Shown here piece after piece: positions 1-26,526 of a DNA stretch of 26,843 nt (within the stretch, counting starts at the first letter, position 1; every line of letters starts with the position of its first letter). The stretch is from a virus. Lineage: Duplodnaviria; Caudoviricetes. Below the pieces are notes generated by a model. That model made no database searches and had not been told where the DNA came from. It worked only from the letters and a program-made list of their open reading frames with translations. The position numbers and the translations under genes were made by a program. The stretch lies in IMG/VR virus record IMGVR_UViG_3300032097_000023, positions 1 through 26,843 of that record. One strand, given 5' to 3'.

Positions 1-55
1 TGGCACCAAGAAAGGCGAAAAAGTAGATTATGCAATCATCAAAGACAACGAGCCT
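1..55 (+). repeat. 55-bp exact direct repeat, copy 1 (copy 2 at 25512-25566)
   Basis: tggcaccaagaaaggcgaaaaagtagattatgcaatcatcaaagacaacgagcct is identical at both positions. Confidence 0.97.
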
Positions 56-6389: not shown

Positions 6390-6848
6390 CGATTTGATAT
6401 CTTCTTCCATCTCGTCCTGCTGGGTGACGGTGTGTTTGACCAATTCAATGATTATCCGTGCAGCGATCACATCCGGAACCTGTCCGGATTTCCATACCTC
6501 AAAAGGAATCTTTGGTTCAACTGTCAGGTTCTCAAGAATCCTACACAGCCTGTCCTCTTCTTCCTCGGTTGTTTCCTCTCCCTTCTCGGCTGCCTGGCTG
6601 ATTCTCATCAGATCCTTCATTGTCTTCTGTGGTGGGTTGGCTTTGACCTTGAGTATAGCTTCACCTGCTGAACTTGAGAATGGTATTTCGATCAGTTCGT
6701 GTTCAGTTACATCGAGCAAGTGCTGAAGGGCACTGGATACGACTGATTTTCTCTCGTTCTCGAACTGCTCTACATCCTGCTGGAGTTCTGCCTCGGTCTG
6801 TCTGTTCAGCTCATCAGCTTCTTGCGGAGTAAGATTATCCAGGCTCAT
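6321..6848 (-). CDS. Tail assembly chaperone (G-like)
   Basis: Acidic 175-aa protein between tail tube and TMP with an overlapping downstream frame. Confidence 0.75.
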   Translation of the reverse strand: MSLDNLTPQEADELNRQTEAELQQDVEQFENERKSVVSSALQHLLDVTEHELIEIPFSSSAGEAILKVKANPPQKTMKDLMRISQAAEKGEETTEEEEDRLCRILENLTVEPKIPFEVWKSGQVPDVIAARIIIELVKHTVTQQDEMEEDIKSFRKDGRRAKTSRNRGDPAKATK

Positions 6849-7342
6849 GCTGTGACATATCCTGTGTACATCTTGTCTCCATATCCAGTCAGATCTACCT
6901 GGGAGTACTCTCCATCCGGAGCAGTCCAGGGAGCATTCTCCCAGTAGATGTTTGTGACTTTGACAGGATACTCTTCACCGTTCTTGCCAGTGACAGTTCC
7001 CCATATATCGAATAATGGAACAGTATTGCTGTCCGTGATCTCTGCCATTGTGTTCCCGGAAGAAGTAGCGCCGTCAATATCCTGATCAGCATTCTCAGTT
7101 CCAAGGATCTTCCCAATAACATTAGGATGGAACTTTGCGAACTTTGCATTGACAGATACTTTCACATTCTTCCTGGCAACATCTTCACGGAACACTGTGT
7201 CCTGTCCATACAGTTCGACATGCTCCCATTCGGTCTTTATTTCTACTCCTTTCAGGATACCAACAGTGAGAGTCACTGGGGATGTTTCTGCAGTCTTGTA
7301 GACAACTGTAAGAGTGTCTCCAAAAAACGATGTTTGTGCCAT
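6845..7342 (-). CDS. Major tail tube protein
   Basis: 165 aa, beta-rich, immediately upstream of TAC and TMP; no sheath gene present. Confidence 0.75.
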   Translation of the reverse strand: MAQTSFFGDTLTVVYKTAETSPVTLTVGILKGVEIKTEWEHVELYGQDTVFREDVARKNVKVSVNAKFAKFHPNVIGKILGTENADQDIDGATSSGNTMAEITDSNTVPLFDIWGTVTGKNGEEYPVKVTNIYWENAPWTAPDGEYSQVDLTGYGDKMYTGYVTA

Positions 7343-7348
7343 TTGTTA

Positions 7349-7624
7349 TCACTCCTTATGCATTACCCAATTATCTGAGAACAGGTCCAGTTGTGAAGGT
7401 GTCCACGGTGCAATCATTCCCTGAGCATCTTTCATTGCAAGATATGGTCTGACTTTGACCAATGTGCCAGGTGAAACGTTGTGAGCAACAGAAGTGTTTG
7501 TGTTTGCAGGCACTCCCTCCTCGTATCCGGGCATTGTTGTGACATACATACCCTTCCCATTCCAGTTTTTGTTCGTTACTCGATACCCGTTTTTCAGGTA
7601 TTCTAATGCTTTTGAAAAGTCCAT
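7349..7624 (-). CDS. tad2: DUF2829 / Tad2-family protein (Thoeris/CBASS signal sponge homolog)
   Basis: MDFSKALEYLKNGYRV..NWNGKGMYV ... PYLAMKDAQG..APWTPSQLDLFSDNW matches the DUF2829 signature F..AL..LK.G..V.R..WNGKGM...PY..MK......PW..SQ.D..A.DW. Confidence 0.85.
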   Translation of the reverse strand: MDFSKALEYLKNGYRVTNKNWNGKGMYVTTMPGYEEGVPANTNTSVAHNVSPGTLVKVRPYLAMKDAQGMIAPWTPSQLDLFSDNWVMHKE

Positions 7625-7627
7625 ATT

Positions 7628-8038
7628 CTAGAGTTCCTCCAGATCTTGATGAATAGCAACGTCAATCACTCGCCTGCTCAGACCTCTTGTCCTGTCGCTC
7701 AGGTCCTGATCTCTGACCATGTATAGTCTATCATACCCAACTGCAGGTGAGATGTATTTAGATTCGATAATACGCTTGACCTCGGTAACGTGCAGGTCAA
7801 AACGTGTCTTCAAAATAGAACGTATGTCAATTGATATGGTCCAGGAATGGTCAAAAGTCTTAATTCCGGAATGTGTGATAGGTCCTGCACCAGTGTTGTA
7901 TGTCAGTATGAAATCGCCCTGTCTAACGTCAACGTTCCCGCGGTTAACGATAGTATCAATAATTGGTGTAACTCCGCCAGTGTTCGAACTGTTCCAGTTG
8001 TCACTTAGCAGAGCTGTGATTATATCGGCTTCTTTCAT
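7628..8038 (-). CDS. Tail terminator / completion protein
   Basis: 136 aa upstream of the tail tube; ISIDIRS and RRVIDVAI strands typical of this fold; ends in TAG. Confidence 0.65.
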   Translation of the reverse strand: MKEADIITALLSDNWNSSNTGGVTPIIDTIVNRGNVDVRQGDFILTYNTGAGPITHSGIKTFDHSWTISIDIRSILKTRFDLHVTEVKRIIESKYISPAVGYDRLYMVRDQDLSDRTRGLSRRVIDVAIHQDLEEL

Positions 8039-8057: not shown

Positions 8058-8084
8058 AAAAGAAGCAGTTGGTTTGTTTAAAAA
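8058..8084 (-). promoter_or_regulatory. Conserved 27-bp putative late promoter, copy A (tail operon)
   Basis: Minus strand TTTTTAAACAAACCAACTGCTTCTTTT; 26/27 identical to copies B and C; 19 nt before the ATG at 8038. Confidence 0.8.
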
Positions 8085-8149
8085 CTTTACTGAAAAACAG
8101 TTGAAATAATCATAACCCGATTTTTGACTGTAAACTATGGAATAGAATG

Positions 8150-8243
8150 TTAAAAAAGAGACGTTTTTTTATGTGCCGGAAGGGGGGTGATGTTTTTGGG
8201 AGGTACCGGCACACGAATTGTTGGGCTTGTTTTTCCAACAATA
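8150..8243 (-). ncRNA. Candidate two-hairpin sRNA with anti-Shine-Dalgarno loop
   Basis: TATA-like run at 8260-8270; 8-bp stems 8217-8224/8235-8242 and 8172-8179/8206-8213; loop UACCUCCCAAAAACAUCACCCCCCUU; U-tract near 8151-8156. Confidence 0.45.
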
Positions 8244-8365
8244 TCAAGTCGGATGTATTAATATATATATGCCATGTATATAATTATGCTTTTTGTGAAC
8301 ATGACACATACAAAACAGAACTAAAAGAAAAAGCAATCCAAGATATAGAGCAATTTCGTTCCTAC

Positions 8366-9028
8366 TCATATACTGATGATCTCCCGGTGGTTATACAGGA
8401 TCCTTTCAACATCCTTCTTCCAGGAATTGACCTTTGACATGATACCGTACTTGTCAACACCTTCAGGCAGCTGAATAACATAGTCGTCATTCTCTGCGAT
8501 TTCAATTGCAACGAGCTTTGTGCATGCTTCTTCAATGTCTCCGGGGACAGAATCATCACCATAGCGATATGACACCCGGACTCCTTTTCCAAGAGTCCAT
8601 GGTTTCTGGCCAGCCAGATACAAGACACCAAGATTATAGTCGAGCCAATAATCATCACCACGGCCTTCGGTGTAGCCGTTAGCATCAAGAACAAGATTAT
8701 CCCATTCGTTGCCGTTCCAGATTTCTATCTTGTCAATGCCTGAAACAAGGGTGTTGATCTTCCTGTGCTTCAGGTGAATGGCAAACTGCCTCTGGTAGAG
8801 GTTGTAGCAATTGTGTGGAACGTCATAGTATTCATCCAGGACCTGCACAGCTCTCCAGGCGTGTCCCGTTTCCCTGTCAACTGTGTCTTCCATCCGATTG
8901 ATTGTGCTCTCGACTTCTGCTAAAGTAGGGTCAGTATCAGTTGAGAACACCAGTCTTGCCTGCGTGGTCTGATCGATCAACCTCATCAAAGAAGCTACTT
9001 TTGCAGCGGTTGTGTAAGTGACTGCCAT
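8366..9028 (-). CDS. Head-tail adaptor/connector protein
   Basis: YTTAAKVASL N-terminus and VRVSYRYGDDSVPGDIEEACTKLVA motif (gp15/gp6-like). Confidence 0.8.
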   Translation of the reverse strand: MAVTYTTAAKVASLMRLIDQTTQARLVFSTDTDPTLAEVESTINRMEDTVDRETGHAWRAVQVLDEYYDVPHNCYNLYQRQFAIHLKHRKINTLVSGIDKIEIWNGNEWDNLVLDANGYTEGRGDDYWLDYNLGVLYLAGQKPWTLGKGVRVSYRYGDDSVPGDIEEACTKLVAIEIAENDDYVIQLPEGVDKYGIMSKVNSWKKDVERILYNHREIISI

Positions 9029-9867: not shown

Positions 9868-11037
9868 TTACTGGAAGTCCCTTCCTTTTGCCTGTGACTT
9901 GAACTTTGTACAGACGATCTCACCCATCATGTAGTGCAGACCCTCAGTTCCAATGAAGTCATTTGCGAATGGATCATTGGATTCGAGATACTGGATCGGT
10001 GAGAGAACACCCACATGTATGTTGTCAAGATCAAGGAGCATTATCCTTGAGATGGTGTCCTGGAGCACAGTGTTGTCCGGAATGATTGGAACTCCCTTGT
10101 AGGTAGCAACATCAAAACCAGCCTCTACACCTGAAACTGTCTGGATACCATTGACCGTCATCTGCACCTTTGTCTGGCCTATGAACCTCTGCTGTGCCTG
10201 GAGAAGCTGCTCGATACGTTCAAGGGTGTCATATCCTGTGATGATGGCTTTGTTGCTCACACCTGCATCTTTCCAGTATGGTCTGGTGTTTGTGAACAAT
10301 GCATCAATATGAGTCAGTGCAAGGTCACGTGAACCGGATCCAAATGCCTGACCATTCACATATGCATCTGCCCAGGAAGCGCCTGCATCTCTGTCAAGGC
10401 CATATATGTCAAGATCACCCGCGTCAAGAACTCCGGAGTCGTCAACTTTTCCATATGCCAGTTCAGCATAGGATCCTACGATCCTGTCAAGTGAGTTTAT
10501 GCCAGTTGTAGGCACTGTATCTGCAGTTGCAACGGCTGCTCTGTTGAGTCTGTTCTTGAACTCATCACCCATGTAGTCAACGAGATCTCCCCACTCAACT
10601 ACATCATCCTTGCCTGCCAGGAGTGTCTCCATATCTGACTGGTTGAAGGTTGCTGCAGAAAGTGTTGGAGCAACAGGGACCTGCTTAAAAGATGGTTTGA
10701 TGGTGTCCGGAAGTGCTCCGCTTTCAGTTATACCAGGCGAATCTGTTGAAGCTGGTGCAGTGACTGCACGATATCCGGATTTTTCCCATGGCTTGAAACC
10801 AAGCGCACCAAATGCATTGGCAGCTGTTACGACCTGTCTCCAGAGTTCACGTCCGTACAGGATGTTTCTGACACCATCTGTGTTTGTGAGTACTGGAGCG
10901 TCTGCCTTCTGCAGGGTTGCAGGGAGACCATAGACGAGCTTTTCCATGTCTTCAATAGTCTGAACCCAACCACGACTGATGGCCTTGGTCAGATATGCAG
11001 TCCTTGCTGTCCTCTGGGAATCGAGATCGTTTACCAT
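9868..11037 (-). CDS. Major capsid protein (HK97 fold)
   Basis: 389 aa directly after protease/scaffold; GITESGALP and ATYKGVPIIPD..V...RIMLLDLD motifs; GGAGG RBS. Confidence 0.88.
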   Translation of the reverse strand: MVNDLDSQRTARTAYLTKAISRGWVQTIEDMEKLVYGLPATLQKADAPVLTNTDGVRNILYGRELWRQVVTAANAFGALGFKPWEKSGYRAVTAPASTDSPGITESGALPDTIKPSFKQVPVAPTLSAATFNQSDMETLLAGKDDVVEWGDLVDYMGDEFKNRLNRAAVATADTVPTTGINSLDRIVGSYAELAYGKVDDSGVLDAGDLDIYGLDRDAGASWADAYVNGQAFGSGSRDLALTHIDALFTNTRPYWKDAGVSNKAIITGYDTLERIEQLLQAQQRFIGQTKVQMTVNGIQTVSGVEAGFDVATYKGVPIIPDNTVLQDTISRIMLLDLDNIHVGVLSPIQYLESNDPFANDFIGTEGLHYMMGEIVCTKFKSQAKGRDFQ

Positions 11038-12122
11038 GGTCTTTCCTCCTGTGTATCAATGATTGCAGAGATCTGCTTGTACCCCATGCCGGCAGTCTTT
11101 GAACTGTCCTCCAGCATGATCTGAGCCTGGGACTTTTTCAGTTCATTCTTCTTGAGTTCCGGACGAGGAGTGTCTGGTTCTTTACCCTTCATTCTCTTTG
11201 CAAGAGCCTTTTCGACAGCCTTCTCAACGATTGATCCAATGTCAGGTGCAGGTTCTGCAGATTTCTCATCCATTTCTTCCTCTTCTTCAGGATCCTCTTT
11301 CTTCTCCTCTTCTTCAGGTGGCTTGTCTTCCTTCTCGAGCTTCTTCTCTACTTCGGAAAGTCTGCCATCGATTCCCTTGAGCAAGGTAAGTATCTCATCG
11401 CTTTTTGCAACGGTCGATTCTACAGCAGGAGCACCGTCCGTGTCTGCTGCTTTCTGTGTTGGATTTGGTTTCGGTTCTTCTGCCATAGTATCACCTATGT
11501 GATCGTGATTTTTTGCAAGCACATTGACTTCCTCAATGCTTGCTTCCTGATTTGCTCCCACTTCGACCGGGGAGACTTCAAAAAGGTCCATGTTTTTTAC
11601 AGCGTTCCAGCACGTTTTTGCACTGCACGCCTTGCCCTGGTCCAGCGGATCGGCACCAATAGAAAGGTCAGCGTACTCTTTACCGCACACTTTTTCCCAC
11701 ACGTTATCGTAAATTCTCTGACCTTTGAAAACAATGCCTTCGAGATACACGCCGGGTCTTTCCACACCATCGGAACACATCTTGTTGCGAAGTTCGTAGT
11801 TTATCCAGCTGCCTACCCTACGGTTGCTGTGCTGGTCCATCATGGATGCACCGGAAGCCATGAAGAAATCAAGAGCTTTCTGGAATGCTCCTATCTCCAC
11901 CACATCGCCTTGTCTATCGACAAGTTCTACCGATGCCCAGCCTGCAAAATAACGTGCATTTTTCTTGAGCTGTGACCAGGCAACTTTCGCTGAACATGCA
12001 TTATCACCATTGCACTCTCCTTCATATGTAGAATTGAAGATATCTCTCCACTTCGTTTGATCAGCTTCACTAAGCGAGTTTCTCACAGCTTCAGGGAGTT
12101 GGGAGTTTTCAGAGTAAGGCAT
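11031..12122 (-). CDS. ChaB-like domain + HK97-type prohead protease + acidic scaffold region
   Basis: MPYSENSQLPEAVRNSL..QTKWRDIFNSTYE..AKVAWSQLKK (ChaB); FAGWASVELVDRQGDVV, DQHSN, LSIG and LFEVSPVEVGANQEA (protease); E/K-rich C-terminus. Confidence 0.85.
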   Translation of the reverse strand: MPYSENSQLPEAVRNSLSEADQTKWRDIFNSTYEGECNGDNACSAKVAWSQLKKNARYFAGWASVELVDRQGDVVEIGAFQKALDFFMASGASMMDQHSNRRVGSWINYELRNKMCSDGVERPGVYLEGIVFKGQRIYDNVWEKVCGKEYADLSIGADPLDQGKACSAKTCWNAVKNMDLFEVSPVEVGANQEASIEEVNVLAKNHDHIGDTMAEEPKPNPTQKAADTDGAPAVESTVAKSDEILTLLKGIDGRLSEVEKKLEKEDKPPEEEEKKEDPEEEEEMDEKSAEPAPDIGSIVEKAVEKALAKRMKGKEPDTPRPELKKNELKKSQAQIMLEDSSKTAGMGYKQISAIIDTQEERPW

Positions 12123-12130
12123 CAAAAAAC

Positions 12131-12157
12131 AAAAGAAGCAGTTGGTTTGCTTAAAAA
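12131..12157 (-). promoter_or_regulatory. Conserved 27-bp putative late promoter, copy B (protease-capsid operon)
   Basis: Minus strand TTTTTAAGCAAACCAACTGCTTCTTTT, 8 nt before the ATG at 12122. Confidence 0.8.
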
Positions 12158-12281: not shown

Positions 12282-12473
12282 ATGACAAATGCAACAACAA
12301 TACCAACCACAAAGGTGGTGAGAGACAGACTGAAAAGCTATGGTCAAAAAGGTGAGACATATAGTGATATTCTCATGCGCATGATGGATTCACTCGATAA
12401 AGAGGAGTTTATGGATCGTATGTACAGACGTTTGGAGGAAAAGGATCAGTTTGTTTCTCTCGATGAAATTTGA
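12282..12473 (+). CDS. Antitoxin, archaeal RHH-type (RelB-like partner)
   Basis: TTIPTTKVVRDRLKSYGQKGETYSDILMRM N-terminus and acidic FVSLDEI tail; directly upstream of a RelE-like gene. Confidence 0.8.
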   Translation: MTNATTIPTTKVVRDRLKSYGQKGETYSDILMRMMDSLDKEEFMDRMYRRLEEKDQFVSLDEI

Positions 12474-12479
12474 TGAGAG

Positions 12480-12752
12480 ATGGAAATGAACTACAGAGTA
12501 AGTATACACCCACACGCTGTGAAGTTTTTAAGGGCACAGGACAATGAAACGAAGGATCGACTTAAAGAAGGTCTCAGAAAACTCGAAAGCGAACCCTTAA
12601 GTCATGATGTCAAAAAGCTGAAGGGTACAAAAGGAAGACAGGATTTGTACCGATTACGTATTGGAGATTATAGAGCTGTCTTTTCTATCGAAGAAGACAT
12701 TGTATACGTACTCGAAATAATACCACGCGAACATGGATACAAGTGGCTTTGA
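12480..12752 (+). CDS. relE: RelE/ParE-family toxin
   Basis: YRVSIHPHAVKFL, VKKLKG, LYRLRIGDYRAVFSI and IIPREHGYK motifs. Confidence 0.9.
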   Translation: MEMNYRVSIHPHAVKFLRAQDNETKDRLKEGLRKLESEPLSHDVKKLKGTKGRQDLYRLRIGDYRAVFSIEEDIVYVLEIIPREHGYKWL

Positions 12753-15241: not shown

Positions 15242-15268
15242 AAAAGAAGCAGTTGGTTTGCTTAAAAA
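15242..15268 (-). promoter_or_regulatory. Conserved 27-bp putative late promoter, copy C (portal operon)
   Basis: Identical to copy B; 6 nt before the portal ATG at 15235. Confidence 0.8.
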
Positions 15269-15600: not shown

Positions 15601-18489
15601 TTAAAGCCCTCCTTCACCTTTCTGCTTATTTACAACTACGATTCCCAGAGCAAGCACAATTCCCACACCCAGGATCCAATAAAGATAACTTGACCCATTG
15701 TCATCTTCAACAGGTATTTCCTCTTCTTCTTCTTTTTCTACCGTTGTAGGGACTTCAGTAGTTACCTGTGATGTTTCTTCAACTACCTCTTCCACATCAG
15801 TGCCGAACAGTGCATACAATGAGAAATGATTGATATAGGCTGTTGCTCTGCCATTTTCCCAGTCAACGGTTGTCTCCAAAGCAACCCATCCGCCCTCGGG
15901 CGTGTAAGAGTAGATAGTCGGATTTCTGCCTTCATACTCTTTCGGATCGAAGTCTATTGTAATGAGGACTTCCTTGCTGAAGGTTGTTCCTGAAGGACCT
16001 AAGTCATAGTAGAGGCCTGAATCAAGGACCTCTGCAGGAGTATCTGCTGGCAAAGATGCCGGAGTAGTTATAATTATCTTGCTCACAGGGTTACCTGAAG
16101 TATCTGTTCCTGCTGTTCCCTTGTAAAGTGTCAGAGTGGTTTTTGCATCAGATGATTTGACAACAGTATCACCGATCAATTCTCCATCATTGTTTGTTAA
16201 AAGTGTGGTTGTTGTCCCCTGTGATAACACTCTTGTAGCTACAGAACCGCTACTTGAGCCTGAAGAACTACTTGAACCAGAAGAACTGCTGCTTGGAGTA
16301 TCTTCAACGTAAAAGAGTCCAAACGTGCTAAACTCAGAGAGGTTTGCAGAGACATAATTACCTGTTGTATTAAGTGAGGTCTCATTTACTTCAGTCCAGT
16401 TGCTTCCACTTAACATATAGAGATCTACTGAGGATTCATCTGAACTGCTCATGTTGGAATCGTCATAGAAGAAGGCAACATTCAAATCCTCTGACCTGTT
16501 AATGGTTACATAGCCATTAACATTTGTTTTTCCGGAAAGAGCAGTAGCGTTTGTTTCAACTCCGGATATTCCTGTTTCAGATGAATCTGTGACAGTAGAT
16601 ATCTCTGTTGAAATATCGGTCAGTACAAGTTTGTCCACTATACAGTTGCTGGAAGATAATGCATAGAGAGCATAAATCCCGTTATCAATCGCCGTGTTTT
16701 CGGTTAAAGTATTGTTGTTTGATTCAGAAAGGACAATACCGTAATCATTGTAACTGGCATTATTGCTTGTCAGATGGTTGCTGATTGAGGAACCAAGGGT
16801 AATACCGTAAGTATTGTAACTGGCATTATTGCTTGTCAGTGTATTGTTGCTTGAACTAGAAAATAAAATACCGTAAGTATTGTCACTGGCATTATTGCTT
16901 GTCAATGTATTGTTGCTTGAACTATAAAGGAAAATAGCTAAAAAAGGGTGGTCATTGACATTATTGCTTGTCAGATTGTTGCTGATTGACTCATAAAGGT
17001 AAATACCGTAATTGCTATTGCCATTGGCATTATTGCTTATCAGATTGTTGCTGATTGAGAAATCAAGTTGAATACCATTATAATTGTCACTGGCATTATT
17101 GTTTACCAATGTATTGTTGCTTGAGGATTCAAGGTAAATACCCCGACCACTATTGTCATTGGCATTATTGCTTGTCAATGTATTGTAGTTGCATGAGGAA
17201 ACAAGGGAAATACCCTGATTATTATTATTGTTTGCATTATTGCTTGTCAGATTGTTGCTGATTGAGGAACCAAGATAAATACCGTAATCATTGTAACTGG
17301 CATTATTGCTTGTCAGTGTATTGTAGTTGCTTGACTCATAAAGGTAAATACCCTGATTATTATTATTGTTTGCAATATTGCTTGTCAATGTATTGTTGCT
17401 TGAGGAATCAAGGTAAATACCCCGTTGACTATTGGTGATTGCAATATTGCTTGTCAATGTATTGTAGTTGCTTGAGGAATCAAGGTAAATACCGCGAGTA
17501 TTGCCACTGGCATTATTGCTTGTCAGTGTATTGTTGCTTGAACTATAAAGGAAAATACCGTTATTATCATTGTCATTGGCATTATTGTTTGCCAATGCAT
17601 TGTTGCTTGAGAACTCAAAGGAAATACCCTGATTATTATTATTGTTTGCATTATTGCTTGTCAGAGTATTGTTGCTTGAGGAAAAAAGGGAAATACCGAT
17701 ATTATTGTCACTGGCATTATTGCTTGTCAATGTATTGTAGTTGCTTGAGGAATCAAAGGAAATACCGGTATTATCATGGTCATTGGCATTATTGTTTGCC
17801 AATGTATTGTTGCTTGAACTATAAAGGTAAATACCGAAATAGGTATTGTTATTTGCATTATTGTTTGCCAATGTATTGTTGCTTGAGGACGAAAGGTAAA
17901 TACCGGTATTATCATTGTAATTGACATTATTGTTTGTCAATGTATTGTAGTTGCTTGAGGACGAAAGGTAAATACCGCCATTATTGTCACTGGCATTATT
18001 GCTTGTCAGAGTATTGTTGCTTGAACTATAAAGGTAAATACCTATACTATTTCCAGTCAAGGTATTATTTGAAATCGTGCAGTACATTTGATTGTTTAGA
18101 TAAATAGCCGCCTTGGGACTATCATCAGTCGCACCTGTAATATTGAATCCGCTTATTGTGACATTATCTACCTGCACATCAAATACATGATCGCTACTTG
18201 AGCTAGCCCGGATGGTCGTGTTCGCAGAGCCGTTCTGAGAGCGAATTGTGACTTCGGTGGCAACATTTATGTTCTCGGTGTAAGTACCATCATTCACAAT
18301 AATGGTATCGCCGTTAGTTGCGTTTGCAAGTGCGGCAGTGATGGTTGAATTCCCAAGTCCCTCGCCGACTATGATATCGGCTGCTGAAACTGGCCCTGTA
18401 CATGAAAGTAAAATGCAGACTAACGCTGCTAAAATAATATAGTATTTATTTGATGTCATTTTATCCACATTCGTGTAAATTATATCCAT
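15601..18489 (-). CDS. Cell-surface NosD/parallel beta-helix repeat glycoprotein (host-type cargo)
   Basis: Signal peptide (YYIILAALVCILLSCTGPVSA), GDTIIVNDGTYTENI cap, about 20 GIxLxSSSNNTLTSNNA repeats, Ser linker, C-terminal TM helix and basic tail; true start may be MTSNKYY. Confidence 0.9.
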   Translation of the reverse strand: MDIIYTNVDKMTSNKYYIILAALVCILLSCTGPVSAADIIVGEGLGNSTITAALANATNGDTIIVNDGTYTENINVATEVTIRSQNGSANTTIRASSSSDHVFDVQVDNVTISGFNITGATDDSPKAAIYLNNQMYCTISNNTLTGNSIGIYLYSSSNNTLTSNNASDNNGGIYLSSSSNYNTLTNNNVNYNDNTGIYLSSSSNNTLANNNANNNTYFGIYLYSSSNNTLANNNANDHDNTGISFDSSSNYNTLTSNNASDNNIGISLFSSSNNTLTSNNANNNNNQGISFEFSSNNALANNNANDNDNNGIFLYSSSNNTLTSNNASGNTRGIYLDSSSNYNTLTSNIAITNSQRGIYLDSSSNNTLTSNIANNNNNQGIYLYESSNYNTLTSNNASYNDYGIYLGSSISNNLTSNNANNNNNQGISLVSSCNYNTLTSNNANDNSGRGIYLESSSNNTLVNNNASDNYNGIQLDFSISNNLISNNANGNSNYGIYLYESISNNLTSNNVNDHPFLAIFLYSSSNNTLTSNNASDNTYGILFSSSSNNTLTSNNASYNTYGITLGSSISNHLTSNNASYNDYGIVLSESNNNTLTENTAIDNGIYALYALSSSNCIVDKLVLTDISTEISTVTDSSETGISGVETNATALSGKTNVNGYVTINRSEDLNVAFFYDDSNMSSSDESSVDLYMLSGSNWTEVNETSLNTTGNYVSANLSEFSTFGLFYVEDTPSSSSSGSSSSSGSSSGSVATRVLSQGTTTTLLTNNDGELIGDTVVKSSDAKTTLTLYKGTAGTDTSGNPVSKIIITTPASLPADTPAEVLDSGLYYDLGPSGTTFSKEVLITIDFDPKEYEGRNPTIYSYTPEGGWVALETTVDWENGRATAYINHFSLYALFGTDVEEVVEETSQVTTEVPTTVEKEEEEEIPVEDDNGSSYLYWILGVGIVLALGIVVVNKQKGEGGL
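16681..18050 (-). repeat. Intragenic tandem repeats, about 20 units of 66-72 nt
   Basis: Recurrent ggcattattgcttgtca..gtattgttgcttga..aggtaaatacc units encoding beta-helix coils. Confidence 0.9.
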
Positions 18490-22705: not shown

Positions 22706-23008
22706 TCAGGCCACCTCCGTGTTGTCCCAGACCGTCAGGACGCTACTACCTGGGTGAACACATGTCAGTTTCTGACAGCCGGCGTCCATCAAAAGGCCAC
22801 CAATTAAAGCAGCAACTGGGATTGGTACTCTTCCAATCAATTCTGCGCAAAAATCGTTATGGTTGGGTAGTTGTCCAAGTACCCATCCTTCAACATCATC
22901 CATCTGCTGAGGATTCAACCGCATGAATGGGTTTTTCCTGTCGCCTGTCCAGAAGTCCTCTGGAAACTTTCTCATATCAATTCCAATTGTTAGTTCACAA
23001 TCTTTCAT
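22706..23008 (-). CDS. Hypothetical 100-aa protein, weak Csx3/STAS-like pattern
   Basis: ORF in the early operon; ELIGRVPIPVAALIGGLL...KLTCVHPGSSVLTVWD. Confidence 0.6.
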   Translation of the reverse strand: MKDCELTIGIDMRKFPEDFWTGDRKNPFMRLNPQQMDDVEGWVLGQLPNHNDFCAELIGRVPIPVAALIGGLLMDAGCQKLTCVHPGSSVLTVWDNTEVA

Positions 23009-25008: not shown

Positions 25009-25245
25009 TTGTTAGTAAAAAGAAACAAACCGTTAATAACGGCAAGTGTTAGTCCCTATATAAAAGAGCAAGCGGACGCACTCGTGGATTCGGGCAACTT
25101 TGGGAGTATGTCCGATCTTGTCAGTATTGCCTTAGCGGAGTTTATTGGAAATTACAAGCGTGAACACGGCATGACTGCTCACAAATCACCCTTAACTACT
25201 TCAAAAGACGACAAGCCGATTGTTGTTGAGCACATAATCGAGTAA
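25009..25245 (+). CDS. RHH repressor candidate, divergent from the early operon
   Basis: KRNKPLITASVSPYIKEQADALVDSGNFGSMSDLVSIALAEFI; TTG at 25009 preferred to the ORF-track start at 24925. Confidence 0.75.
   Translation: MLVKRNKPLITASVSPYIKEQADALVDSGNFGSMSDLVSIALAEFIGNYKREHGMTAHKSPLTTSKDDKPIVVEHIIE
25175..25245 (+). repeat. 71-bp imperfect direct repeat, copy 1 (3' end of repressor gene)
   Basis: 67/71 identical to 26456-26526. Confidence 0.95.
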
Positions 25246-25335: not shown

Positions 25336-26412
25336 ATGAATATGGACTTTATCGATCATGTAAAAGCGTTGGCTGCTAAGGTGCCTGCCCTGAAAGACAG
25401 CATCCAGACTGAAGAAGCGACAAAAAACGCACTTGTTATGCCAATGATTAATATTCTTGGCTACAATGTTTTTGACCCTACGGAAGTAATTCCGGAATTT
25501 ACTGCAGATCATGGCACCAAGAAAGGCGAAAAAGTAGATTATGCAATCATCAAAGACAACGAGCCTATCATATTAATAGAGTGCAAACCGATCGGATCAG
25601 ACTTAAACACCAACCACGCATCACAATTATTTAGATACTTCAATGTTACTTCTGCGAAAGTGGGTATTCTAACCAATGGTACAACATATCGATTCTTTTC
25701 AGATCTAGAAGATGCCAACAAAATGGATGACAAACCTTTCCTGGAAATAGACCTTCTCAATCTCAAAGATGAACAGGTAGAGGAGTTGAAGCGCTTTAAA
25801 AAAGAACGTTTTGATATTTGTGAACTTGAATCGGTTGCAAATGAATTAAAATATACTAAGGAAATTAAACAGATACTTTTAAAAGAAATGAACAAACCAT
25901 CTGATGAGTTTGTTAAGTTCTTTGCTAATCAGGTATATACTGGCCGGATCACACCCAATAAGCGTGACCAGTTTACAGCAATCACCAAAAATGCATTTAA
26001 CCAGTTTATTAACGACCGTATCAATGAAAGGTTAAAGATTGCAATGTCAGACAGGGATACTGTAGACTCTGTCGAAATAGATGATGACATAGAACCTGTT
26101 GATGATGGAATAGTCACTACTGAAGAAGAAATCGAAGGGTATCATATCGTCAAAGCAATTCTCCGTGAAACTATCTCGCCTGAACGGATTATTATGAGAG
26201 ATACTAAAAGCTATTGTGGGATTCTTTTAGATGATAACAATCGAAAACCAATATGTAGACTTCGATTTAATTCTTCTCAGAAATATGTAGGTATCCTTGA
26301 TGATGAACGCAAAGAAGTAAAAACACCCATTGAAGAACTGAATGATATCTACAAGCTGGCAGATGTGATTAAAGCAGCCGTTGAGCGAATGGAAAGTCTA
26401 AATGATAATTAG
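25336..26412 (+). CDS. HsdR_N-like PD-(D/E)xK restriction endonuclease-family protein (prophage-associated type)
   Basis: EEATKNALVMP..LGYNVFDPTEVIPEF, EKVDYAI..IILIECK, QLFRYF, ILTNG..YRFFSD and C-terminal LDDNNRKPICRL. Confidence 0.85.
   Translation: MNMDFIDHVKALAAKVPALKDSIQTEEATKNALVMPMINILGYNVFDPTEVIPEFTADHGTKKGEKVDYAIIKDNEPIILIECKPIGSDLNTNHASQLFRYFNVTSAKVGILTNGTTYRFFSDLEDANKMDDKPFLEIDLLNLKDEQVEELKRFKKERFDICELESVANELKYTKEIKQILLKEMNKPSDEFVKFFANQVYTGRITPNKRDQFTAITKNAFNQFINDRINERLKIAMSDRDTVDSVEIDDDIEPVDDGIVTTEEEIEGYHIVKAILRETISPERIIMRDTKSYCGILLDDNNRKPICRLRFNSSQKYVGILDDERKEVKTPIEELNDIYKLADVIKAAVERMESLNDN
25512..25566 (+). repeat. 55-bp exact direct repeat, copy 2 (copy 1 at 1-55)
   Basis: Direct comparison. 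Confidence 0.97.
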
Positions 26413-26424
26413 TATACTTGCCTA

Positions 26425-26526
26425 ATGTATAAGCGTGAGCAGAAAGAGAAGACAGCTGCTCACAAATCACCCTTAACTACTTCAAAAGACGATAAGCCAA
26501 TTATAGTTGAGCACATAATCGAGTAA
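26425..26526 (+). pseudogene. Duplicated 3' end of the RHH repressor gene (contains copy 2 of the 71-bp repeat, 26456-26526)
   Basis: MYKREQKEKTAAHKSPLTTSKDDKPIIVEHIIE* versus YKREHGMTAHKSPLTTSKDDKPIVVEHIIE*. Confidence 0.75.

Follow-up and report, generated by a model that had tools for sequence, protein, structure and literature searches.

A Tad2-like gene as an optional insert in the tail module of a Methanolobus provirus, with a probable role as an immune-signal sponge

What is a gene of the Tad2 family doing in the tail module of a virus that infects a methanogenic archaeon? We addressed this question on the window, the entire stretch of 26,843 nt analyzed here (virus record IMGVR_UViG_3300032097_000023, positions 1 to 26,843), which is a linear virus record carrying terminase, portal, protease, capsid, adaptor, tube, tape measure and fiber genes on the minus strand. 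The locus itself comprises the gene and the variable site that holds it:

7349..7624, minus strand: Tad2-like (PF11195/DUF2829) gene, predicted immune-signal sponge (Pfam, PDB sequence matches, fold)
7343..7637, no strand: variable site holding Tad2, 295 nt against 22 nt in the empty allele (contig joints, L029)

The open reading frame runs from ATG to TGA and encodes 91 amino acids; the plus-strand reading of the same interval was rejected because it is full of stops. An earlier note on this DNA had claimed a full DUF2829 signature, and the corresponding profile search bears this out: the protein matches PF11195 (Tad2-like, formerly DUF2829) over positions 1-71 of the 73 of the model (E-value of 2.6e-20), with 73.2 bits relative to a curated cut-off of 25 bits. 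It also matches PHROGs 1048, 872 and 30130, as well as seven distinct Tad2 sequences of the PDB at E ≤ 1.7e-6. The AlphaFold2 model, built with a 21-row alignment as input, has a mean pLDDT of 95.5 and displays the Tad2 monomer fold: an N-terminal helix, an antiparallel sheet and an insertion after strand 2, which forms a strand-helix-strand at residues 34-58. Foldseek yielded 24 matches at E ≤ 0.001; all of the 15 matches listed among them were Tad2 proteins and the next match had an E-value of 0.73. The search of the ESM Atlas was concordant with the Tad2 fold. The best solved relatives by both sequence and fold are ModTad2, HgmTad2, SptTad2 and SPO1 Tad2, and the first of these (also named MoTad2; Myroides odoratus prophage; PDB 8V3E and 9EIB) is the best match by sequence (E-value of 3e-16) and by fold (38-40% identity; E-value of 2e-8). 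The best solved relative is about 40% identical, and another relative (P0002) is 79% identical. These results show that the product is a genuine member of the Tad2 family with a rare pocket variant, as described below.

The virus had been taken for an archaeal methanogen virus, and three lines of evidence agree with this assignment. Among annotated phages, all 11 records with capsid matches are haloarchaeal or methanogen viruses. A contig of a Methanolobus metagenome-assembled genome (MAG) matches the window at 99.995% over 20,423 nt. Finally, a near-identical record, classified as a provirus, carries an integrase gene and a ferritin-like gene at its opposite ends. Both proteins recur at 100% identity on two further contigs of the Methanolobus MAG, so the host link does not depend on the binning of a single contig. 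The virus is therefore a Methanolobus provirus, and a bacterial host is ruled out by the capsid relatives, the MAG match and the flanks. Several features of the ends of the record were observed in passing. Window positions 1-55 are an exact 55-nt repeat of 25512-25566, probably an assembly artefact, and the provirus record runs on into the integrase where the start of the window repeats 25512-25566. A 71-nt direct repeat (94%; 25175-25245 and 26456-26526) flanks a gene with an HsdR-N domain at 25336-26412. The near-identical provirus record (L031, 5880-8435) holds about 2.5 kb extra relative to window positions 22714-22719, and an ORF of 331 aa bearing a P-loop motif lies within this extra stretch; the difference represents either a deletion or an assembly variant.

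The gene is tightly packed between its neighbors, starting 3 nt past the stop of the upstream ORF and ending 6 nt before the ATG of the downstream one, with ribosome-binding-like words of its own at both junctions. The surrounding features are the following:

6845..7342, minus strand: tail tube protein gene, 165 aa (fold matches to Phage_TTP_1 clusters)
7628..8038, minus strand: 136-aa gene upstream of Tad2, putative tail terminator (position only)
8058..8084, minus strand: TATA-like motif copy A, putative promoter of the terminator, Tad2 and tube genes (repeat)
12131..12157, minus strand: motif copy B, upstream of the prohead protease gene (repeat)
15242..15268, minus strand: motif copy C, upstream of the portal gene (repeat)

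The site had been described as lying between tail terminator and tail tube. The tube gene is upheld by the predicted structure of its product (TM of about 0.66-0.70 to Phage_TTP_1 clusters), and it is followed by a 175-aa gene and then by the tape measure gene. The terminator is so labeled from its position: the product of 7628-8038 has homologs in related tailed viruses and obtained no family name from Pfam, NCBIfam, PHROG, the PDB or the phage collection. Likewise, the earlier note had placed Tad2 as the second gene after a late promoter; the gene order is correct, since copy A lies upstream of 7628-8038, and the words "promoter" and "late" are to be read as putative. The 27-nt motif is present in three copies in the window relative to zero matches in 100 shuffles, and the first 16 nt of copy A are kept in six related loci (L029, L034 and L036-L039). 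A sigma-70 scan was at chance level, archaeal promoters being outside its scope. Contigs from two RNA runs (X16, 7559-7839; X19, 7563-7804) partly cover Tad2 and extend across its junction with the upstream gene, at a depth of 3-4 with uncontrolled DNA carry-over, and we did not count them as evidence of expression. The intergenic stretch 8085-8376 upstream of copy A is variable, with about 330 nt here relative to about 125 nt in L029, and it is skipped in one contig of run X15.

Its site between two tail-module genes, with gaps of only 3 and 6 nt, could indicate that the Tad2 protein is a structural or assembly part of the tail. This appears very improbable, however, given how often the gene is missing. 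In two DNA runs (X13 and X15), a contig joins 7342 to 7638 through 22 other nucleotides, a clean empty allele whose filler, read by hand, provides a stop codon in frame and, ahead of the ATG of the tube gene, the word GGAG. These joints were found in two of the eight runs compared, X13 and X15 coming from different studies, with one contig each and 30 nt on the short side (likeness set to 85). Both runs also have contigs carrying Tad2. In the relative L029, whose tube protein and upstream gene are each 88% identical, the flanking genes abut without Tad2, and in L044 (tube 56% identical) an unrelated 58-aa ORF stands in its place. A Tad2 profile built from our own alignment matched a single locus among 90 capsid- or tube-related loci and, in a second scan, a single locus among 80 related to the upstream gene; in both cases this locus was the query virus. 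Within the first set, 24 other loci carry a homolog of the upstream gene, and in 23 of these the sequence continues for 500 nt or more downstream; Tad2 is absent from all 23, most of which are distant (about 30%). These empty alleles led us to reject a structural role in the tail, and we conclude that Tad2 is an optional insert between two tail-module genes in this provirus population. Such optional presence is what is expected of a counter-defense gene.

The absence of Tad2 from the outgroups favors a gain in the query lineage. The composition of the gene equals that of its neighbors (GC of 0.442 and GC3 of 0.446) and thus gives no sign of recent transfer; because of this composition, and because a 79% identical relative exists, such a gain would not be recent.

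Other variable or unusual stretches were observed along the same set of viruses. A toxin-antitoxin pair (DUF7557 and ParE-like) lies on the plus strand, opposite to its surroundings, at 12282-12752, with the neck gene on one side and the protease gene on the other; it too is an optional insert, since L034 and L037-L039 align on both sides and have about 20 nt there instead. A gene upstream of the portal gene (15601-18489, minus strand) encodes a protein of 962 aa with beta-helix repeats, whose N-terminus is signal-like and whose C-terminus holds a membrane anchor; this gene is absent from L037-L039, which join its flanks. The prohead protease (Peptidase_S78; 11031-12125, minus strand) possesses an N-terminal ChaB domain. 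In L029, the tube gene starts with ATA at 1371-1374, overlapping the upstream TAG stop, which represents a rare start or a sequence error.

A particular meaning had been attached to the location of the sponge within the tail operon. This did not hold: Tad2 is often found among head or structural genes in bacterial phages. Of 25 further viral Tad2 loci, 12 (three of the six distinct contexts) have a portal gene no more than 2.6 kb away, the remaining ones being located among replication or early genes, and in the Bacillus phage phi4J1 the gene sits inside the head operon, between the head morphogenesis and scaffold genes. We therefore rejected any special significance of the structural-operon site; placement among structural genes is ordinary and the tail junction is a minor variation. 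In one phage group, two Tad2 alleles occupy a single site between the portal and scaffold genes (L003, L005 and L013 relative to L011 and L012). Their N-termini are near-identical and they differ in the insertion and in the C-terminal motif (WLASQSD and WVPSVND, respectively), which suggests that the part determining specificity may have been swapped.

We then compared the pocket residues with those of the solved relatives. In SPO1 Tad2 (Gp34.65; PDB 8SME, 8SMF and 8SMG), the central gcADPR pocket is formed by W25, N26, W73 and D79 together with S76, with T78, I63 and T65 at the adenine (Yirmiya et al., bioRxiv 2023.05.01.538930); in HgmTad2, it involves W21, N22, G23, M76, W87, S90 and D93 (Li et al., bioRxiv 2023.11.15.567273). 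The five ligand residues of SPO1 (W25, N26, W73, S76 and D79) are all kept in our alignments as W21, N22, W74, S77 and D80, and the HgmTad2 residues correspond to W21, N22, G23, M64, W74, S77 and D80. The core of the pocket, W-N-G and W-x-x-S-x-x-D (W21, N22, G23, W74, S77 and D80), is therefore conserved, as it largely is with respect to HgmTad2/AcrIIA7 and SptTad2 (PDB 8KBI-8KBM, 8WJC and 8WJD). The fold is also similar to that of SPO1 Tad2 (TM of about 0.68), but the identity is only 26-28% and the adenine and water network differs: the threonine that bonds to the adenine (SPO1 T78; HgmTad2 T92), expected of binders of the type I Thoeris signal 3'cADPR, is replaced by L79, I63 is replaced by M64, and at the rim T65, D67 and H71 are replaced by D66, Q68 and A72. 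With ModTad2, the protein shares the WNGKG motif, the W-T-P-S stretch and an extended insertion after strand 2, but it differs by Q-L-D after WTPS (V-S-D in ModTad2), by the insert itself and by its archaeal rather than bacterial host.

A second departure concerns position 18, where the usual arginine of the family is an asparagine; 18 of the 20 other aligned rows do not have N. The pair N18 and L79 occurs together in three of the 21 rows (the query, P0002 and P0012), and neither residue is found in the remaining rows. The string SQLD was counted 20 times and the string SQTD 2,225 times in Table S1 of Hadary et al. (PMC12393519), where rows are redundant and at least one occurrence of each string belongs to the sheet of another family. 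The strings TNKNWNGKG and SQLDLFS and the identifier of the identical provirus were not found in that table. It is conceivable, as a tentative idea that we consider improbable, that the R18N/T79L pair marks a sub-lineage of Tad2 whose central pocket would be retuned to an undescribed Thoeris-like TIR signal of methanogens.

These departures from the family consensus may instead indicate a passenger gene, neutral or in decay, whose product binds ligands poorly or not at all, in line with the loss or absence of the gene in close relatives and with the 5 of 15 Tad2 rows of Table S2 that were inactive in all seven assays (Hadary et al., PMC12393519). We regard this as doubtful, because the reading frame is intact in every copy seen, the gene has the ribosome-binding-like words mentioned above, and P0002 keeps 18 of the 19 tabulated positions, including N18 and L79, which points to purifying selection. 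The same table shows 15 numbered Tad2 rows out of 18 homologs tested; inhibition of one or more systems is recorded for 10 of these rows, which by our own reading include seven of the eight with an intact WNG and W-x-x-S/T-x-x-D core. Homologs with T, S, G, A or I at the T78 site inhibited Thoeris (I in Tad2_79), and those with the bulky residues Q (Tad2_78) or V (Tad2_73) did not. The change to L79 therefore need not abolish activity, and it does not indicate which ligand is bound.

The other pocket of the family, the apical one, offers an alternative function: Tad2 might act mainly there, on cyclic mono- or dinucleotides of Pycsar, of CBASS or of a housekeeping messenger. ModTad2, the top fold match, binds His-ADPR in its central pocket and cUMP in its apical pocket, so that an apical ligand is conceivable here as well, and the insert at residues 34-58 is common to P0002-P0009 (identity at 12-21 of 31 residues), a sign that its function may be maintained. 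We nonetheless consider this alternative unlikely. The residues with which HgmTad2 binds cyclic dinucleotides, R31, N85 and F70, correspond to M31, P73 (at an alignment gap) and V58 and are not kept, and the long insertion of that subgroup (HgmTad2 and SptTad2; R31, N85, F70 and S47) is replaced by a shorter one. PycTM, SAVED, DncV-like and mCpol were found in none of 36 Methanolobus genomes, the SAVED and DncV searches being weak since they were silent in control genomes too. SMODS matches in 31 of the 36 genomes are single-copy ORFs of about 460 aa and are probably the CCA-adding enzyme; we set them aside as a sign of CBASS on the grounds that they are a probable housekeeping nucleotidyltransferase. 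The suggested binding of CBASS cyclic dinucleotides is thus unsupported, as the dinucleotide pocket of HgmTad2 is not kept and no CBASS marker emerged from these weak searches. The matches to 8KBI and 9KZR, labeled AcrIIA7, raise in turn the idea of an anti-CRISPR, which is extremely unlikely given that the anti-CRISPR activity of the protein with that label was not reproduced (Li et al., bioRxiv 2023.11.15.567273).

ThsB-type TIR proteins were detected in 6 of the 36 Methanolobus genomes and in 66 of the 284 genomes of the order Methanosarcinales, many of the weak matches being TIR domains of larger proteins, and ThsA-Macro was found in 5 of the 284. Within Methanolobus, one locus holds a Macro-ThsA and ThsB pair with a type II layout (L129) and another a TIR and caspase pair with a type IV layout (L132); in addition, L125 is PDC-M50 and L128 encodes a TIR and an 8xMP membrane protein. 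TIR genes also lie beside unnamed or membrane ORFs in L126 (1312-2614), L127 (1477-2686), L128 (929-2864) and L131 (647-1833), one of these loci having a TGT-like gene and an 8xMP protein; these four are candidate archaeal Thoeris types. The proposal that the virus counters nucleotide-signal immunity therefore finds Thoeris-type systems in the genus but not in the host MAG (G002), where no ThsB, TIR_2, Macro, caspase, cyclase, PycTM, SAVED, DncV-like or mCpol was detected, the completeness of this MAG not being given. Tad2 itself is present in 2 of the 284 order genomes. The second copy (L124), located downstream of a terminase gene, resembles Tad2_79, an inhibitor of type I and type IV Thoeris (Hadary et al., PMC12393519), with which it shares 51 of 64 residues, or about 80%, in a comparison by eye.

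The lack of a cognate system in the host MAG, together with the altered adenine subsite, could mean that the protein is a sponge for the signal of an uncharacterized, non-TIR archaeal defense system. A similar mismatch led a study of Asgard viruses to propose other targets for Tad2 (PMC13700489). This is quite unlikely here, as TIR operons are present in congeners and the core of the pocket is of the ADPR type.

Taken together, we find it probable that this Tad2 protein, an optional insert in the tail module of a Methanolobus provirus and likely a homotetramer, sequesters an ADP-ribose-derived signal made by a host TIR protein of the Thoeris type. We counted in its favor the family, the fold, the core pocket, the host link, the alleles with and without the gene, and the TIR-effector operons of congeners; against it, we counted the lack of Thoeris in the host MAG, the T78 to L79, rim and R18N changes, and the modest identity of the nearest solved relative. 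Transcription from the repeated TATA-like motif would cover Tad2 together with the tail genes, the Tad2 product would form a homotetramer, and the TIR signal would be held in its two central pockets, such that a Macro, caspase or membrane effector would stay off while capsid and tail proteins accumulate. Late co-expression, if confirmed, would be sensible because capsids (PMC12578639) and tail fibers (bioRxiv 2026.06.04.730250) trigger Thoeris in bacteria. The sequence cannot tell which signal (3'cADPR, His-ADPR, N7-cADPR, cADPR or another) is bound.

The earlier note overstated the novelty of a Tad2 protein in an archaeal virus: homologs are already in print as predictions. The Asgard virus JinchiV3 encodes a predicted Tad2 homolog, its host being without a cognate system (PMC13700489), and a Methanosarcinaceae provirus encodes predicted NARP2 and Tad2, with no cognate host system seen (bioRxiv 10.1101/2025.11.27.691053); PMC13712596 and bioRxiv 2025.12.03.692087 were consulted as well. 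Our case resembles both in being a predicted Tad2 in an archaeal tailed virus or provirus with no cognate system seen in the host, but it concerns a different virus, for which the tail-junction site, the empty allele and the type II and IV operons in congeners are documented. That no archaeal example has been characterized agrees with our literature search, outside of which most subscription journals lay and which returned no experimental test of Tad2 or Thoeris in archaea.

Taken alone, this gene adds one more archaeal virus to the range of a widespread family, as specialists already expect. Thoeris-type TIR signaling is predicted in many methanogens, as indicated by the ThsB-like TIR of the order genomes, and this locus constitutes a convenient test case, with a small intact Tad2, a host known at the genus level, alleles with and without the gene, and candidate target operons in congeners. 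If the proposed retuning by R18N and T79L were true, the protein could be used as a bait for a first identification of a TIR immune signal in archaea, and the two alleles within a single virus population would provide a natural test of counter-defense in archaea.
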